A DNA stretch of 64,000 nt from NCBI GenBank assembly GCA_977018835.1, contig OZ361260.1, forward strand, positions 1,302,001 through 1,366,000, written 5' to 3'. Of this stretch, positions 1,697 to 11,769 are shown piece after piece. The notes below the pieces were generated by a model. It searched no databases. It was not told the DNA's origin and was given only the letters and a program-made list of their open reading frames with translations. Within the stretch, counting starts at the first letter, position 1. Each line of letters begins with the position of its first letter. The position numbers and the translations under genes are program-made. Origin of the DNA: Minutocellus sp. GHC0000111 (taxonomy: Eukaryota).

Positions 1697-2571
1697 CTAA
1701 TAACGACCATATCCACCATCGCCGCCCTGGTTGCCGCCGCCATATCCGCCGCCACCCTGGCTGTTGTCATCATTGTAAGACGACCATCTGCGTGCCGACC
1801 CCTGAACTGGGACTCCACCGGGCCCACTGATACTCTCGGCGCGGCGGCGTCCACCTTCCTCTTCCACAATGTCGAATTCGACCTCCTCACCATCACCGAG
1901 GCTCTTGAATCCGTCAGAATGAACGGCCGAGTAGTGAGCAAAGCAATCGGGGCTGCCATCGTCGGGGACAATGAATCCAAAGCCCTTCTTGGGGTCTGAG
2001 TACATCAGGGGTGGGAGAGAGTATGCGCCAAAATCCACGGGTTGACATCACGGAGGCGAGAGAGGAGAGAAAAATGTGAAGTTTGAGGTGAGATGATGTA
2101 GTCAGACGTGTGCCAGCGCAAAGTGGCAAGACGCACCAATATCACATCAGCACCGAGCCATCCAATGCGACATTGTGTGAGCCAATGTGTATGCCGGACA
2201 GCTCTTATCTGGGAGCTCCGAGATCATTCGTGCTCAGATTCGTCCATGACGCCAAAAGATAGCTGTAACACAGCTCAAACACACAAATGCCCATCAGATG
2301 AGAAGATCAGACAAACGCCACCTTCAATCCAACAATGCATCACAAGTGCCCATTTGCGCCCCCCAATCCACATGGAATGCCTCCTTGCTCAAGATTGCCA
2401 ACTGCACTCACCGAACCACTTCACAACTCCTTTCGAGCGTCCGGCGGCATCGTCCGAGAAGGCGCGAAGTGCATTGAAGAAAGCAGGCTGCTCAGTAGCG
2501 ATCATTGTCTGGCGCGAAAAGGCACCAGTGCGGAGAGCCGAACGGCCAACGGAAGCGATGGAGCGGAACAT
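1697..2571 (-). CDS. Cold-shock domain protein with Gly-rich tail and putative mitochondrial presequence; exons 2571-2412 and 1995-1697
   Basis: Splicing gives KGVVKWF-DPKKGFGFI...FAHYS (CSD RNP motifs). The N-terminus is Arg/Ser/Ala-rich (MFRSIASVGRSALR), and the C-terminus carries GGGGYGG. Confidence 0.9.
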
Positions 2572-2764
2572 AATGATATGGGGGCCGGATGTTGGCAAAA
2601 AGGGCACAATAAATAATGAACGGTGGAGCGGCGCCGGCTCAGCAAATCTCATGGCCGCGAAAAAAGGCGTCTTGCTTCGCCCGGCCAGTGAGTCTGAGCG
2701 ACAGCTGGCAGCGCGACACAGCAGCCGAAGCAACAGCAAGCAAAACACACATGTCTGCTCAGAT

Positions 2765-2921
2765 TGACGGAGGTGCAGTATTGCGAGTGCATTGGTAGGG
2801 ATATCGGATACGGATGTAGGGAGGAGGATGTGATGCTTTGGAGTGGGGTTGGAGGTCGTTTAGGGGTAGATTTACGCGGTTTGCTAGGGTTGGCGGGGTG
2901 AATTTTGAGATGAAAAACATG
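2765..2921. repeat. Solo partial copy of the 186-bp satellite unit
   Basis: GACGGAGGTGCAGTATTGCGAGTGCATTGGTAGGG... is near-identical to the units at 3899, 4085 and 4271. Confidence 0.9.
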
Positions 2922-3031
2922 CAATAGATTGGTGTTCGGTCGGGGTGCCATCTGTAGGGCTTGTTAGCCCGCACCTACATGCTCATAATGGATCAGGCAA
3001 GCTAGATGCTCAGCACTCTTGCTGAGAGCAA

Positions 3032-3398
3032 TCAGCTCATAAGCATGCGAACTACTAGTTGTCATAGAGGTTATCAATATGACTGCAATGGCTTGCCCCC
3101 CGGCCTCCACACGTGCATAGATCTAGATGTAGATCATGATATGCTGGTGGCAATGTTAAATCAGCTCGTCGTAAGCATGCGAACTACTAGTTGTCATAGA
3201 GGTTATCAATATGACTGCAATGGCTTGCCCCCCGGCCTCCACACGTGCATAGATCTAGATGTAGATCATGATATGCTGGTGGCAATGTTAAATCAGCTCG
3301 TCGTAAGCATGCGAACCACTAGTTGTCATAGAGGTTATCAATATGACTGCAATGGCTTGCCCCCCGGCCTCCACACGTGCATAGATTTAGATGTAGAT
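3032..3398. repeat. 132-bp tandem repeat, about 2.7 copies
   Basis: AAGCATGCGAAC starts at 3041, 3173 and 3305. Confidence 0.95.
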
Positions 3399-3629
3399 CA
3401 ATCCCTGTGTGTGTGTGATCCGGCACACATGCATTTGAAGGCATGTGATTTCACAGGACCCTCAGGTCCGACTCATGCACCTCACATCACCACGCTAGCA
3501 GCTTCACTGTGTAACCTTTTCTTCTATTCTTTCCATTTGCTTCACCAAACTATTTACACACAGAAGCTTCCATGGTTATGTCTTAGAAATAGACTTTTCA
3601 AGCAAAGAGAGGATTGATGCAATGAGGCT

Positions 3630-4450
3630 CTAGGGTTGGCGGGGTGAATTTTGAGATGAAAAACATGGATTTTTGTGGTGCGAAATGAGAACAGATGTAG
3701 AGGTAGGGTTGACGTTTGTGCAGTATTGCGAGTGCATTGGTAGGGATATCGAATACGGATGTAGGGGGGAGGATGTGATGCTTTGGAGTGGGGTTGGAGG
3801 TCGTTTAGGGGTAGATTTACGCAGTTTGCTAGAATTTTGAGATGAAAAACGTATGGATTTTTGTGGTGTGAAATGAGAATAGATGTAGAGTTAGGGTTGA
3901 CGGAGGTGCAGTATTGCGAGTGCATTGGTAGGGATATCGGATACGGATGTAGGGGGGAGGATGTGATGCTTTGGAGTGGGGTTGGAGGTCGTTTAGGGGT
4001 AGATTTACGCAGTTTGCTAGAATTTTGAGATGAAAAACATGGATTTTTGTGGTGTGAAATGAGAATAGATGTAGAGTTAGGGTTGACGGAGGTGCAGTAT
4101 TGCGAGTGCATTGGTAGGGATATCGGATACGGATGTAGGGGGGAGGATGTGATGCTTTGGAGTGGGGTTGGAGGTCGTTTAGGGGTAGATTTACGCAGTT
4201 TGCTAGAATTTTGAGATGAAAAACATGGATTTTTGTGGTGTGAAATGAGAACAGATGTAGAGTTAGGGTTGACGGAGGTGCAGTATTGCGAGTGCATTGG
4301 TAGGGATATCGAATACGGATGTAGGGGGGAGGATGTGATGCTTCGGAGTGGGGTTGGAGGTCGTAGATTTACGCAGTTTGCTAGAATTTTGAGATGAAAA
4401 ACGTATGGATTTTTGTGGTGTGAAATGAGAACAGATGTAGAGTTAGGGTT
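3630..4450. repeat. 186-bp G/T-rich tandem repeat, about 4.4 copies, most containing TTAGGG
   Basis: GACGGAGGTGCAG starts at 3899, 4085 and 4271, and GAGTTAGGGTT recurs in the units. Confidence 0.95.
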
Positions 4451-4461
4451 TGTAGTGACCC

Positions 4462-4708
4462 TAGGTCAAGACACCAGGGTCAGGGCCAGGACCAGGGTCA
4501 GGGTCAGGGTTTTGCCTGAGGCTGTGGTCAGGGTCAGGGTCAGGGTTTTGCCTGAGGCTGTGGTCAGGGTCAGGGTCAGGACCTTGCCTGAGGCTGTGGT
4601 CAGGGTGGCCAAGGTCAAGGTCAGGGCCAGGACCTTGCCTGAGGCCAAGGTCAAGGTCAGGGCCAGGCCCTGAGAAACAGGGCGAGGGTCAGGGTCAGGG
4701 TTAGGGGC
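4462..4708 (+). repeat. Telomere-variant tract of (TCAGGG)n with higher-order repeats, ending in TTAGGG
   Basis: Many GGTCAG/TCAGGG hexamers interleaved with TTGCCTGAGGCTGTGG blocks. Confidence 0.85.
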
Positions 4709-4719
4709 AGTTAGTGGAT

Positions 4720-5467
4720 TGTTAGGGATGTTAGCTGTGGTGCATGGGATGAGTATTGGATGGTTTGGCTTGTGTTTGGAGGATTTGCAGATGTAGATTT
4801 ACATGGTTTGGTAGTGTCAGGGTCAGAATCAGGGTCAGAATGAGGGTCAGGGTCAGAATTATTAGATGACGACTAGACGGAGAAGGAGGTGTAGGAAGTA
4901 GAGTAGATTGATAGGGATGTTAGCTGTGGTGCATGGGATGAGTATTGGATGGTTTTGGTTGTGTTAGGAGGATTTGCAGATGGAGATTTACATGGTTTGG
5001 TAGTGTCAGGGTCAGAATCAGGGTCAGAATGAGGGGGTCAGGGTCAGAAATATTAGATGACGACTAGACGGGGAAGGAGGTGTAGGATGTAGAGTAGATT
5101 GATAGGGATGTTAGCTGTGGTGTATGGTCCGGCAGGAAATTGCGACTTTTCCCGTACTTCGCCGCGTTGGAAACACGGACGACGGAAAAACGAATGTCCA
5201 GTTTTTGGGTCGAGCGGCTCACCTAAAGCTGGACCAACTCGAAAACTGAGGTGAAGATAGGGTTAGATGACGACTGACTAGACGAAGAAGAAGGAGGTGT
5301 AGGAAGTAGGGTAGATTGATAGGGACATTAGCTGTGGTGTATGGGATGAGTATTGGATGGTTTGGGTTGTGTTTGGAGGTTTTGCAGATGAAGATTTGCA
5401 GGGTTTGGTAGTGTTGGTGGCATGATTTTGCATGGAAAATTGAGATGAAAATAGGGTTAGATGACGC
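4720..5467. repeat. ~190-bp degenerate tandem repeat containing TCAGGG motifs; third copy interrupted at about 5126-5255
   Basis: AGGGATGTTAGCTGTGGTG starts at 4724, 4913 and 5104, with a variant at 5321. Confidence 0.85.
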
Positions 5468-6145
5468 CTAAGGTGTGGAGTGGTTTTGGCCCAAAAATAG
5501 CGCGACGTTGTGTGTGAGTTGTGCTGCTTCGTGGCCCAAAAATAATAGTAACTACCAATGACCTTCTCATTTTGGCCCAAAAATAGGATCTAGTCGAGCG
5601 AGTCATTTGTCCGAATGAAACGACGAAGCTCCGTACGTAGGCAGGCTCGTACATAAAGTAATCCCGGAAGCTGTTTTTCGCCGTTTCATTCAAACAAGTA
5701 GCGTTCAACAATCATCCGACTCGAACACAACACGTGCTGCTTTTTGATCGCATCAATGCGCTCTCGCTGCCTCGATGCTGCATCGACCATAACAGCGAGT
5801 TCAACAACGTATTGATCAGCCATCTACGTGACGGCCGGCCTTTCATTGTCCGCCGTTCAATCACAATCCGCTGATCACCATTCACCCGCCGCTCGTCGGT
5901 CCGCATCATCCGCCTGCCGTTCGTCCGCTGCTCTCATCCGCCGCATCATCATCATCATCATCATCCGACATCACAGTTTCGTGCTATCTCATTTGGGAGA
6001 GATATCAACACACGAATAGGCAGAAGATACCACGGGGGCGTGGGAATTCGAACTCTCCGGTTTGGTGCCAAAAGAGTTCCATACGGTTGTAGACATCCGT
6101 CCGACCCGCCCCCATCACATGTGGTGCCTGCTGTGATCCCATCAG

Positions 6146-9100
6146 ATGGATGTACAAGTACCAGTAGATACCGGTACCGATACTGGTGCTTCCAGCACCG
6201 GGGCCGGTCCTCAAAAAGGCTTGAGCGCTTCTTGCTCAGATATTGTTTGCAAGCGGTGCAATGTGCGGATTTGGCATGATGGCCAACCATTCGAGCGTAT
6301 CCGGATGGAAATGTCCCGGCATGTGAATTTACATAATGGCCGATGCCGACCAGATGGAAATTTCAAACCGGCAAAGGAGGCCAAGATGCTGGTGGAGCAA
6401 ATGATCATAAATCAGAATCTTTTTGAGGTCCGCGGCGCAAGAGAATGTGACTTTCTCCGCAGGGAAGATGCAAAGGATTCACATGAATGCAGCAGCTGTA
6501 CAAAGTTGTTTGCTACTTTTGATCAGGCAGATCATCATTGCAACTATACGAGATGCAAGGTTGTCCGGCCACCGCCGAGGGCAGTTCGTATCCATTGTCA
6601 TGTCACTGTCGGTGGTACTTTGGTTCGCGCGGTCGGAAATGCCCGGCGGAGATTGGATGATACTTTTTCGGCAGTGCCGATGCCAATAACGCCGGCAGCA
6701 AATCCAATTATTGCAGGACAGAGTGCTGACATGCCTCCACCTCCAGCAGCTCCAGTTTTGCAGCATAATACCGATAATGGTAAGTGTTTGGAACATGCAT
6801 ATTAATCCATATTTTATGTGCCACCATTCGTATCTCATCATGATATCTCACATGCATGTCTTATTTTTGGCTCATGCTACAATAAAATTTACAGATTCAG
6901 ATAATGCAACTGACATCAATACACGTACCGGCGCAGCTGCTTCTGCTGCTAATGCTACTACCACTCCTGTTGCTCCCTCTCTTCCACCAGCAACGCCGAT
7001 GCATCCTCAAGGTACCACCATCACCCCATCTACGGTGTGTCAATATCAGGCCCCGGCAGTTAGGAGAGCTCCTCCTTCATTCTCCTCTACCATCACCACC
7101 GCTCCTGCCTCTACTGTGTCTCATCCTCGCAATCCCTGTCTATTAGCTTTCGATGAGCTATCTTCCATCATGCAAAGAGGTGGCGCCATTCCTTCTCCTC
7201 CCCGAGCTACCAATGAGGCCACAACATCACCATGCTGCCCTCTTGGTCTCACCGGCAAGGATCTCGCCTCTCTGGTCCCATTGCTCGGATCTCCCGAGGA
7301 CATCTCAGCCACCGTATCTTCGACACAACAGCTCTCCTCCACCGCCGCCATTACTTCATGTGGGCAGCTAGTTGTGCAAAAAGCTGCAGAGCATTGGATA
7401 TGCCACCTCGCCCGGCATCATGTGGAAGCATTTTGGCCCACCGTCCGAGCCCAGCTGCAGCATGTGGGCGCAGTGACTGATGATGAGCACGAGATGACAT
7501 CATCTGGTGTATTTTCCTTCCGACAGGAGGTAGATGGTCTCGTTGATACGGTGGAGGCTCTTGCCTTGTCTTTGTACAATGATGTTCCTCACCGCCACCC
7601 AGTGCTTCATGAAATAGTCTCCAAGTCCATCAGATTGATACCGGGGAATGCAGACAAGGCCGCCGAACTAGTGTCAAATACTTACATCTTCGGTCTCATG
7701 TTTTATCAGGTGCTCCTTGAAAAACCATCCCATGCAACTGAATCATCATGGCTTTCTCGGTTTGCTGTATCTCATTGCTTTCATAAGCAATACGCGCAGT
7801 ACAAGATTTACAGTCCCGGCACCTGCAGCAAAAAGATAGCAGCCATTCATTCTGTCTTGCGCATAGCGGCCTGTACGTATCTTTTTGCTCATCCCGCCGA
7901 TTGTGTTCCAGATTATCCTGATTTCTGCATGAGATTCATGCAAGAAATAAGCCAGTCTGCCCAGAACAGCCGCATTGCTGGATTGACATCATTTTTCCGG
8001 AATTGTGAAAGTAGATCTACATTTCAGGAGCCGCCGACGGAAGTAGATCTGCAGGGCAACTACTGGTATGGTAATCACAAGTATGAAAAAGAGAAGATCC
8101 AGAAATTTATACCATCATTGAATGATATCATAGTTGGTGCTCTGGATTCTATCATTCTTGGAGATGAGTGGAAGGATGCAGTAGATCCGGAGAATGAACT
8201 GTTGGTGGATCTAGTTCCATCTACTGGTGCTGTGCAGATAAAGGTACGGTACCCGAATGGCCAGGTCACACAATTTTCTCAGTTCACATCCTCAAACAAG
8301 ATGTCAAATGATGCCAAGGAAGAAAATGCGGGTACTATTATGGCTGCAGCATTGGTATCATTTCAAATAGAAGGATGTGGAGCTCCCCGGGGGAAGGAGC
8401 TGTTGCGCATGCACCGGCACGACATTCTTTGTAGCGCTGGTGTCTTGCACTATGAGACCGTAACCGGTAAGCCCAAGGCTACCGTACGTAGCTATCAGAG
8501 GAAGCTTTCTCCCAAGAGTTCAAGACTGGTAGCAATAGTCATGAATTTATATGAGCGGGGTGAGAACAATCTGCTATTTGATTTGCATTACAAAGATGCA
8601 GCACCGCTGATTGGAGAAATATGGCGCCGTATCTTGGATTTGATAGAAAGGTTGGATTTCTAGAGTCCCGTCAAATTGTTGCTTGTCATTTGAATCAAAT
8701 GGAAATAACACATCCATCATACAACTTTCAAGAGCTTGGGAAGGTATGTACATGTTTGATATTATGTGATACAATTTCAATTGCATTCTATTTTATACAT
8801 GTATCCAGATGATGACATCTCATCTACATTGTTGTTGTCATTTCAGCAAGTAGCGCCGGGATCTCTGGCTGTTGGAATGCAGCATAACCACTCTACTCAA
8901 GCCAAGCACTATCCAAGTCATCACTGGGCTCTATCTGGAAATGCTTCCAATTTGTATCATCATTCTCTTGGCGCTGATCTAGATTCATGGGTGGTGGGGG
9001 CGGTGAGGGATGAGCAGTACTCTGATGCCCAGCTTCTTGCTGCCCTTCGAAAAGTGCTCAACAACGAGTCTGCCGAGTTTCGCCAAGGCCAACTTGAGCT

Positions 9101-9260
9101 TTGCCGTGCTGGTATTGGCCAAGGAAAGCAGAACTCTTTCTGTGACTTCCCTACCGGTACCGGAAAGTCCATCGTTCAGTATGTGCCTCTCATGACCCGA
9201 GAAATGTTCGGCTCTGTCGAGGGCTGCACGGTGGTAGTAGTTCAAACAAAAAACACATGA
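6146..9260 (+). pseudogene. Telomere-linked-helicase-like gene: Cys/His Zn-binding region, putative tyrosine-recombinase-like core and N-terminal RecQ/DEAD helicase motifs; frameshifted and truncated
   Basis: CKRC..H..H and CSSC..HHC motifs; intron 6780-6894; GAPRGKELL, ESRQIVAC and QHNHSTQAKHY motifs; EFRQGQLE and FPTGTGKS (Walker A), then TVVVV and a stop. Confidence 0.65.
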
Positions 9261-9764
9261 GTGAGACGAAGCAAGTCAACATGTAGCATGTCTGCTTGAT
9301 ACATTTTCAAAGTAGCGAGAGTCAGATCACCTAGTAGCTGTGGAAAAATCGGGTTGTCAGCAGCAAGTTGTCTGATAGCAATTGGACTATCGATTGATCA
9401 ATCATCACGTTCATCGCTCCTATAAATAGCACGGGCAGAATTATCACACAGAAGTCAACTTACCTCCATAACAATCTTAGCGCTCGACTGGAAATGTTTG
9501 GAAGGGAGAGGCGTGGAAATTTGAAGAGAGTAAGCGTGCTGCCTTTTCCTGCGCTTGGTGCTGCTCAGATAAAGCTTGAAAGACATCCACCAAACTAGCT
9601 AGTCTCAGAGCGCACATGAAAATAAAGAATTGGGTTTCTCCGTCATGAAGGTTCGGATTATAATTTTGCTTCCAAAGTCATCATCATAGATTGCTATTTG
9701 GGAAGGAGGTGCGTACAAATGTTGCCTGACAGCACTCACCAGTCAAGAGACAGGAAATTCGCCT

Positions 9765-11769
9765 TCAACCCACGCGCTGATAGATTGCGTAATTATCGTA
9801 GACGACGTGTCCATTACGGAAAATAGGAATGTACAAAATTCGATGCAGAAATGACGTCCGATCTACACTGAGATATTTGTATTGCGCGACTTGTCGCCAT
9901 TTCTTTGCACCATCCTTTGCGATGTATTGCAAGCCTTCCGGTACGTGAGCTCCAGAAGTGTCATCTTCGTTGACCAGTTCAATCACATACGAACATGTCT
10001 TGATGTCGACATATCTGTCCTCTTCCTCTTCATTCATATCGTTGAATTTCCCTTTTTGAACGGTAAGACTTTTCTCTTGGGATCCATACTCGGTGAATGG
10101 CTGGGGTAACTGACCTCCAAAGGATGATTTGAGAAATCCGAGGTGGGCGTTGGGAGGGAGGTAGAAAGAGGAAGGATAGCGATACCATTCCCCGCCCACA
10201 CAGACCGTGACGGGTGTATCATGATTGGCGGCTATCACAGCATCGTGCAAGTGCGCATATGTCTTGAGTGGAGCGGAGTAGTTGACAACCAGGGCGGCGG
10301 ACCTGCTAATTGAAACCAATACAATCGGTATCAACGCGGCCGCGAGAAGCCCCTGCTTTGTCTTGTTCTTGTCATTCCGGTTGAGAGACGATGCAATTAG
10401 CTGCCCCATAAGATGAATTATGATAGAGGCTACTTCCTCAACAATCATCCCAGCACCGGCGCATAGCATAGGGTAGATAGGAAAGAGGAATCGTTCCTCC
10501 TTGTGCGGTCTGGGCGCTACAATCGCCAGCCAGACATACATCGGGAGAAGCACGAGCATTTTGCTGGTGAACGCTTCCGTGGTGGGACAGCTCTTTAATA
10601 ATCTCTTCAATACGACGACTGGTAGGGCGAAAAGACCCAGTATAGACACAAAGTTGAGGTTGAGAAATAGATTCTTGGCGTAGTACGATAAGGGCTCGAT
10701 TCCATATAGCTCGTCTCCCTGTCCCTTCGTATTGTAGACGAATATGTTGAATGTAGGCGATACGATTTTGCCGTAGTGAAAGTAATCGATGGTCATGACA
10801 ACAATCTGAATGACTGTGGCATGAAGGGCCGTCCGTGCCAAAAGTCTGACAACAGCACCGATGTTGGGAGCTGATCCATTGCTCTTCCCTTGCATAATGG
10901 TCCCAGCTGCCTTCCACACAGCCCAAAGGCCGGTGGTTACAAACAATACCGCCGAAAAGGGCCAACCGAAGGCCTGAACGGCAATTAGTCCCAACACAAT
11001 CGCCTCGGCATCATTACCCCGTAGCTGCGCCGCGGCGCTGCACATCCAGCAGGACATGACATGCGCCGAGGGTAAGTAGGCCGGTGCCGCGTGGAACATA
11101 CCCGCGGAGCTGAGGGAGGCGATGAGGAAGAAGGTGGCGACCGTCGGCGATATGTTCTGCAAAAGGGCATTGTATAGATTGATTTCGGACATGGCCGTCA
11201 TGGCTGCCAGCGTTGATCGGAGCATACAGAATTGGAGCGGCTTGATGGCCACAAATGGGAGGGATAGACTTCGACCGAGGATGCCGATGAGACTTGAAGG
11301 CAGGATGGACAAGAATCGCTCGTACATCTTAGACAGCAGGGCCATCGGGACGAGGTAGGCATATGTTCGGAGGGCATACTGCGCCCCATATTCCCATGTT
11401 TGCATTCCGCTGTAGTAGTATTGAGCGGAGGGCAGGGGGTGGGTAGGTACATAAATTCTGAGCGGCTTGCCAACAGAATAAAATAATAACCCATCGTAAA
11501 CGTGCCACGTGCAAGTCGAGAAAGCGAGGTATTGTGCACTTTACTCACGTTCCGAAGCGAAGGAAATGCATCGGCTCCCAGTAATTGTAGACCTCATCGC
11601 AATCGGAGATGGGGGCAAGGTTGGCCAACCCAATCCGGAGGGACACAATCAGAACCTCCAGCGTCGTCGACGAGACGGTGACACCACCGAGGGTCAGGGG
11701 CGAGGGAGAGGGGGAAGCCGTCGGCTCATTTTTGGTGCTGCTGCTCGACGAGGCCGAAGCGGCAACCAT
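9765..11769 (-). CDS. ALG9: Alpha-1,2-mannosyltransferase ALG9 (GT22); exons 11769-11549 and 11409-9765
   Basis: ISDCDEVYNYWEPMHFL|GMQTWEY across the intron, plus PHKEERFLFPIYP, EWYRYPSSF and GQLPQPF. Confidence 0.95.

Follow-up and report, generated by a model that had tools for sequence, protein, structure and literature searches.

In the window, by which we mean the whole 64,000-nucleotide stretch of DNA that was analysed, a compound array of G-rich tandem repeats is followed on the same strand by a broken gene of three exons, which carries an N-terminal Cys/His region, a recombinase-like domain and the beginning of a RecQ helicase, and which ends at a rearrangement junction (Table 1). Ordinary genes flank the locus on both sides (O-fucosyltransferase, cold-shock protein, ALG9 and RPN1), with at least 7.5 kb of contig upstream of the array and 55 kb of genes downstream, and adjacent perfect TTAGGG units, the mark of a perfect telomere tract, occur nowhere in the window. 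The gene copy is therefore internal, and does not lie beside a telomere as do the fungal helicases to which an earlier, sequence-only reading of this DNA likened it.

Table 1. Features of the repeat array, the gene and its 3' junction, in window coordinates
Feature	Position	Strand or frame	Remarks
Compound tandem-repeat array upstream of the gene	2764..5600	+	G-rich on + strand; TTAGGG/TCAGGG motifs
Near-palindromic motif between array and gene	5487..5585	+	three copies of TGGCCCAAAAATA (TTTTGGCCCAAAA-type) within 100 nt
Exon 1	6146..6779	+	N-terminal Cys/His region with two zinc-finger-like motifs
Intron 1	6780..6894	+	115 nt, GTAAGT...TTTACAG; inferred from splice signals and frame continuity
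Exon 2	6895..8743	+	low-complexity linker, helical domain, core-binding-like domain, most of recombinase-like catalytic domain
GAPRGKELL	8379-8405	frame 3	
Catalytic-type codons of exon 2	Arg 8388, Lys 8469, Arg 8669	+	ESR at 8663 has Arg 8669 as third codon
One-base deletion (frameshift)	8634..8635	+	relatives P0003 and P0004 continuous at the same place
ESRQIVAC	8663-8686	frame 2	
Intron 2	8744..8846	+	103 nt, GT..AG; skipped in one RNA contig (depth 6.5), run X6
Exon 3	8847..9233	+	His 8883 and Tyr 8910 (H-x8-Y), helicase Q-motif, Walker A, start of next motif
QHNHSTQAKHY	8880-8912	frame 3	
YHHSLG	8955-8972	frame 3	
EFRQGQLE	9075-9098	frame 3	helicase Q-motif
PTGTGKS	9150-9170	frame 3	Walker A
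Rearrangement junction truncating the helicase	9234..9237	.	loose end at 9234 in X1, X5 and X6

The array is built of units of 132 nt (2.7 copies), 186 nt (4.3 copies) and about 190 nt (3 copies), together with units of 36, 18, 12 and 6 nt. Its telomere-like motifs lie almost entirely on one strand: between 2700 and 5500, T[TC]AGGG occurs 29 times on the + strand and once on the - strand, a density of 10.4 per kb compared with 0.28 per kb in the rest of the window. At the left edge of the array (2728-2929) contig depth in run X1 reaches about 1500-1800, against 58 upstream, and in both X1 and X4 this edge is about 25-30 times deeper than unique DNA. As the array is likewise 25-30 times deeper than the gene, most array copies must lie without a near-identical gene beside them. 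The near-palindromic TGGCCCAAAAATA has four matches in the window at no more than one mismatch, three of which form the cluster between array and gene (chance expectation, 0.05). Rfam gave no match in window positions 1900-10000.

A spliced and inactivated gene copy

Exon 1, the Cys/His region of which had been read as zinc-binding from the letters, contains two zinc-finger-like motifs, C35-x2-C38...H59-x3-H63 and C115-x2-C118...H130/H131, and its product reaches the cut-off of no Pfam family; P0009, which comes from a diatom transcriptome, matches it at 30% identity over 173 aa. Intron 1 is spanned by none of the RNA contigs from the runs aligned to the window. Splicing of intron 2 is seen in one contig of one study (run X6, a marine metatranscriptome), in which an interval with GT..AG ends on the + strand is skipped, so that transcription and splicing occur in the window copy or in one nearly identical to it; the same contig joins exon 2 to exon 3. 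Locus L002 and protein P0012 are interrupted at the same protein position. All six motifs of the sequence-only reading were recovered in place, and its Arg 8388, Arg 8669 and Tyr 8910 agree with ours; it had overlooked Lys 8469 and His 8883, and the HxxR position that it had in mind carries no His. The frameshift that it placed ahead of the second Arg is a loss of one base, the later return to frame 3 being the effect of intron 2.

The position of this loss follows from P0003 (82% identical) and P0004 (89%), which have unbroken RIFGFDRKVGFLESRQ-type sequence across the site. DNA contigs of runs X1 and X5 cross it with no gap relative to the window, so that the loss is real and no slip of the assembly. 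A small intron at 8560-8597 was excluded as the cause of the frame change, since the relatives and an RNA contig (8399-8625) run through. The uninterrupted frame stops at 8661-8663, ahead of the second Arg, the His and the Tyr, and the product as encoded reaches about 800 residues.

A second lesion lies at the 3' junction, where the helicase is cut: the final codons of the open reading frame are flanking DNA, and of the helicase motifs the window keeps the Q-motif, Walker A and the beginning of the one that follows, no more. An X1 contig (8150-9267) bridges the junction as found in the window, while in three of four runs (X1, X5 and X6) the DNA from 9234 onward, with ALG9 and RPN1, occurs with another upstream neighbour as well; 20 bases of this other flank at 9234 are absent from the window at up to three mismatches. 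Contig depth, which is a hint only, amounts in X1 to 58.1 over unique DNA (1-2727), 61.7 over most of the gene and 99.4 after the junction, where a 6164-nt contig (9238-15401) bearing ALG9 and RPN1 is about 1.6 times deeper than the upstream DNA and is possibly a segmental duplication. A hemizygous insertion was dropped as the cause of this step, as the unique upstream DNA is equally low (58) and no empty site was found. The depths suit two readings equally well: a broken end that captured a duplicate of the ALG9-RPN1 segment, or a heterozygous rearrangement of larger extent. The window copy is, in sum, a frameshifted, truncated and dead pseudogene that is still spliced.

On the minus strand, a contig of RNA run X7, with only 24 letters on its short side, suggests an intron at 9224-9463 by which the 3' transcript of ALG9 would continue in antisense into the broken gene. 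Over window positions 7169-8179, runs X1 and X5 hold additional diverged or indel-bearing fragments of the gene, one of which continues past 7321 into sequence beginning TTCAGGTTAGGG, a telomere-like motif. In run X1 extra copies or diverged fragments were found for this part only, and neither the catalytic nor the helicase part had another near-identical copy at 80% identity or above in four runs, contigs in both cases showing presence, not absence.

Relatives and the predicted recombinase fold

A phmmer search of the translated interval 7392-8660 against 1.84 billion representative proteins returned 16 relatives at E<=0.001, among them P0013 (2.5e-10), P0015 (7e-9) and P0017 (2e-5). Of 17 relatives looked up, the only one named to an organism comes from Extubocellulus spinifer, a cymatosiroid diatom, and one further cluster member is an MMETSP transcript, which makes a diatom a plausible host. 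Five relatives with a single open reading frame (P0017, P0033, P0013, P0032 and L001; 1155-1566 aa) carry both the upstream domain and DEAD/Helicase_C, and the best PDB matches of the family profile and of a model are RECQL5, RECQ1 and BLM (E 5e-16 and 2e-14): full-length relatives have a RecQ-type helicase. A tree of the 14 of 24 alignment rows that cover 60% of columns separates the group of the window (seven rows) from that of P0017 and L001 (seven rows) with support of 100/99. In locus L003 (2201-3230) a relative appears to be broken into three open reading frames by a frame change and a stop, which indicates that decayed copies exist in other organisms as well.

A word-index protein search with the window open reading frame found no match among proteins of 742-2115 aa, one with P0017 found two, and one with alignment A3 found none among proteins of 1772-5000 aa, the sole size class covered. 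Pattern matches in viral contigs (41 and 17), in metagenomes queried with P0003 alone (76) and in prokaryote genomes (37), where the search is sensitive to close relatives only, included no confirmed relative. No integrase, DUF3504 or DUF3505 match came from Pfam or PHROGs for window pieces or relatives; DUF3505 had been named at the outset as a possible link to Tlh1 proteins.

The recombinase-like domain was compared in alignment A5, the 24 rows of which include several pieces and are mostly 14-33% identical to the first row. The first Arg, a Lys 27 residues after it and the second Arg are each invariant in the 17 covering rows, and so are the His and, nine residues further, the Tyr in ten of ten (the Tyr count was 13 of 13 before three spurious intron read-through alignments were dropped). 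These rows are not independent, P0015 and P0032 being identical in this region and the window, P0003 and P0004 being close to one another. The codons of all five residues are present in the window. The His of HxxR occurs in 1 of 17 rows, and the window has Leu there. Thus, of the catalytic pattern R...HxxR...H/W...Y proposed at first, both Arg, the His and the Tyr are conserved among homologs, with a Lys in addition, and the HxxR His is not part of it. With 16 relatives and invariant candidate catalytic columns despite mostly 14-33% identity, the pattern goes beyond chance.

The fold was modelled on an intact relative, L001 (1502-2731), about 15% identical to the window protein in the alignment, the window protein itself not being folded; the link between the two rests on the phmmer matches (P0013, P0015 and P0017) and on the invariant columns. 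The domain was folded alone because a full-length P0017 model matched helicases only. In the resulting model (mean pLDDT 84.4, pTM 0.68), Foldseek placed Tre/Cre first (E 2.1e-3, prob 0.96-0.99), followed by TelA, XerA and XerH, with no match at E<=0.001. Rescoring of these matches by VIA-align gave Z 11.4 for XerH (rmsd 3.9, 179 residues aligned) and 10.8 for Cre. In an unfiltered search of 48,161 chains the best were XerH (Z 10.6, rmsd 4.4, 182 aligned), Cre (10.4) and XerA (10.0), followed by an integrase (9.6) and topoisomerase IB (9.5 and 9.3); ranks 1-21 are all tyrosine recombinase or topoisomerase IB folds, among which we count SroF as presumably a member of the superfamily, and the first unrelated chain has Z 6.6. 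A fold of the tyrosine recombinase/topoisomerase IB superfamily is therefore well supported by modelling for the catalytic domain of L001, as the sequence-only reading had anticipated. The domain may be a recombinase or an enzyme that only swivels DNA.

Signs of mobility and known systems

Four related metagenome loci, L001-L004, were compared. In L001 an intact open reading frame of 1471 codons and a second one lie between two direct repeats of 194 nt (95-288 and 5864-6057), which are AT-rich, 95% alike and 5769 nt apart; the DNA beyond one repeat is unlike that beyond the other, and no target duplication is evident. In L004 G-rich repeats of one kind, containing CTAGGGTT, flank both sides; they have no significant DNA similarity to the repeats of the window (best E 0.72). 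L002, only 2.7 kb long, and L003 show neither terminal repeats nor telomere-like motifs, and TTAGGG and TAGGGT are absent from L001 and L003. Since intact relatives keep the five catalytic-type residues and one of them is bounded by direct repeats, the family is likely to be a self-moving element; no empty site, circle or activity was seen for it. For the mobile element with a tyrosine recombinase and a helicase proposed from the letters alone, the sign is one relative with direct repeats, L001, the window copy being a low-copy pseudogene.

Each 194-nt repeat of L001 contains three copies of a AAATGCATGGGTC-like motif, a candidate binding site. The second open reading frame of L001 (4705-5634) is 39% identical to the C-terminus of P0013 (residues 1284-1566), in which it is fused to the helicase. 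Its HxD...H pattern is one that we take to be possibly that of a TET/JBP-like 2-oxoglutarate dioxygenase; Pfam, PHROGs and PDB gave no support for this assignment.

The predicted catalytic fold (Z 10.0-11.4) and the order R...K...R...H-x8-Y are shared with XerH, XerA, XerD, Cre and lambda integrase, from which the family differs in the missing HxxR His, in long insertions and in the fusion to a helicase and zinc fingers. Topoisomerase IB and the protelomerases TelA and TelK share the superfamily fold (Z 9.5 for topoisomerase IB, 5.3-6.3 for TelA) and have an R-K-R-H-Y set without the HxxR His, but unlike the family they are not fused to RecQ, and XerH and Cre score equal or higher. Academ transposons have a DDE-type transposase and terminal inverted repeats, and no tyrosine recombinase. 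They resemble the family in encoding a RecQ helicase (PMC3627910, partial text). Cryptons, of which CryptonS is known from a diatom, are eukaryotic tyrosine-recombinase elements too, with terminal direct repeats of 4-6 bp and an R-H-R-Y tetrad, and the word 'helicase' does not occur in the accessible text of PMC3212892; with a fused RecQ and, in L001, repeats of 194 nt, the family falls outside the definition of Cryptons given there.

The closest overall likeness is to the telomere-linked helicase (TLH) genes, described from fungi and one choanoflagellate as encoding C2H2 motifs, a TLH domain of about 250 residues without assigned function, and RecQ (10.1101/2024.02.27.582403, partial text). 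[quoted passage not shown] The family has the same order, with Cys/His fingers at the N-terminus, a conserved domain some few hundred residues long, and then RecQ (10.1101/2024.02.27.582403, partial text); truncated or frameshifted copies, frequent in TLH, are found in both, and the window shares with TLH genes an upstream compound tandem array with telomere-like motifs (PMC1635262, partial text). M. oryzae has such an array (HAR-CDEF) with motifs like TTAGGG, which stops 181 bp short of the TLH start and forms the border with unique DNA, and one chromosome end is truncated inside the TLH open reading frame (PMC1635262, partial text). The window has the same order of array and gene, though at an internal site. 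Differences from TLH are the diatom-like host, the internal and low-copy state of the window copy, and the finger spacing: the first window spacer is 20, against 8-14 in published TLH C2H2 motifs (10.1101/2024.02.27.582403, partial text), and the second motif lacks the last His. One relative gives a weak zf-C2H2 match (E 0.053). Atlas neighbours are unnamed clusters of Ascomycota and Basidiomycota (scores 0.89-0.92), the nearest being fungal. The resemblance to TLH seen in the sequence-only reading therefore stands for layout and helicase, with TLH compared by published description; the two finger-like motifs differ in spacing. The publications consulted do not describe the TLH domain as a recombinase; the word 'recombinase' does not occur in the accessible text of PMC1635262 and PMC12857005, and our literature search, thin on subscription journals and run without Repbase, found no publication on diatom TLHs or on a recombinase fold in TLH.

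Origin and function of the family

Intact relatives join zinc-finger-like motifs, a predicted tyrosine-recombinase-fold domain and a RecQ helicase, and the family may be described as helicase genes of TLH type that carry a predicted tyrosine-recombinase domain and show some marks of a discrete element. We lean towards the view that it is a selfish chromosome-end element of the telomere-linked-helicase type. Its enzyme would cut and rejoin DNA at the flanking repeats of the element: direct or telomere-like repeats at the element ends would be recognised by the N-terminal fingers and the core-binding domain, the Tyr, together with R-K-R-H, would nick DNA through a 3'-phosphotyrosine bond, and strand exchange would release the unit or insert it, with no target-site duplication. 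Unwinding of G-rich repeats or migration of the junction would fall to the RecQ motor and allow the unit to be copied. The window copy was probably once near a chromosome end, its repeat array being followed by the gene with the G-rich strand pointing downstream; it would have broken early in the helicase and then been joined to the ALG9-RPN1 segment.

The intact gene might instead encode a host enzyme of telomere maintenance, whose recombinase-like domain would serve the RecQ motor as a swivel or resolvase in the manner of topoisomerase IB or a protelomerase, the copies of the gene spreading only passively by subtelomeric recombination. An R-K-R-H-Y set without the HxxR His would suit this role, as would the scores of topoisomerase IB (Z 9.5 and 9.3), which differ from those of XerH and Cre by no more than about 1, and the match to protelomerase TelA in Foldseek (prob 0.90-0.93), which VIA-align scores lower (Z 5.3-6.3). 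One of the relatives comes from a diatom transcriptome, and in S. pombe telomere crisis induces the tlh genes, which help recovery (10.1101/2024.02.27.582403, partial text), although M. oryzae ends without TLH are stable (PMC1635262, partial text). L001, however, forms a discrete unit between 194-nt direct repeats, its second open reading frame, fused to the helicase in P0013, looks like element cargo, and the window copy is dead, with other indel-ridden fragments in the same runs. We regard a host enzyme as a serious but unlikely explanation.

Neither is a selfish chromosome-end element the only kind of mobile unit to be weighed. The family could be an interstitial tyrosine-recombinase transposon, Crypton-like and with a helicase helper as in Academ, having no special tie to telomeres and lying beside an ordinary satellite. 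The internal site of the window copy, the lack of TTAGGG or TAGGGT motifs in L001 and L003, an array 25-30 times deeper than the gene and the presence of CryptonS elements in a diatom (PMC3212892, partial text) favour this idea. It is rendered improbable by the independent flanking of L004 on both sides by G-rich telomere-like repeats, by a domain order equal to that of TLH proteins (10.1101/2024.02.27.582403, partial text), by nearest Atlas clusters that are fungal (scores 0.90-0.92), and by the 4-6-bp terminal repeats of Cryptons, for which the accessible text of PMC3212892 has no mention of 'helicase'. An accidental recombinase likeness, in an open reading frame of other kind beside a fragment of an ordinary RecQ gene, could appeal to the absence of a Pfam integrase match and to Foldseek E-values above 0.001, but it is largely refuted and very improbable, given both domains in the single-frame relatives P0017, P0033, P0013, P0032 and L001, the RNA contig linking exons 2 and 3, five invariant residues in recombinase order, and ranks 1-21 in the unfiltered fold search.

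Fungal TLH genes have been on record for two decades; to our knowledge, the 'TLH domain' is unexplained and there is no account of why these genes gather at chromosome ends. Should the matching domain be a tyrosine recombinase with intact catalysis, as appears in the diatom-like relatives, the question becomes testable, and the family would extend to stramenopiles. The window copy, a pseudogene, matters mainly as the marker of a rearranged former chromosome end. We put forward, tentatively, a wider possibility, namely that TLHs are an unrecognised superfamily of eukaryotic DNA transposons reaching diatoms, which would move by one enzyme, a fused tyrosine recombinase and RecQ helicase that may act on long direct or telomere-like repeats; a DNA-modifying dioxygenase may sometimes be carried, and recombination between repeats would reshuffle chromosome ends and could have left the breakpoint at 9234.

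Further along the window, at 31764-58690, about 27 kb are taken up by a very large multi-exon gene. RTX calcium-binding nonapeptide repeats (PF00353) occur in one of its exons; the product is probably a giant secreted or surface protein.
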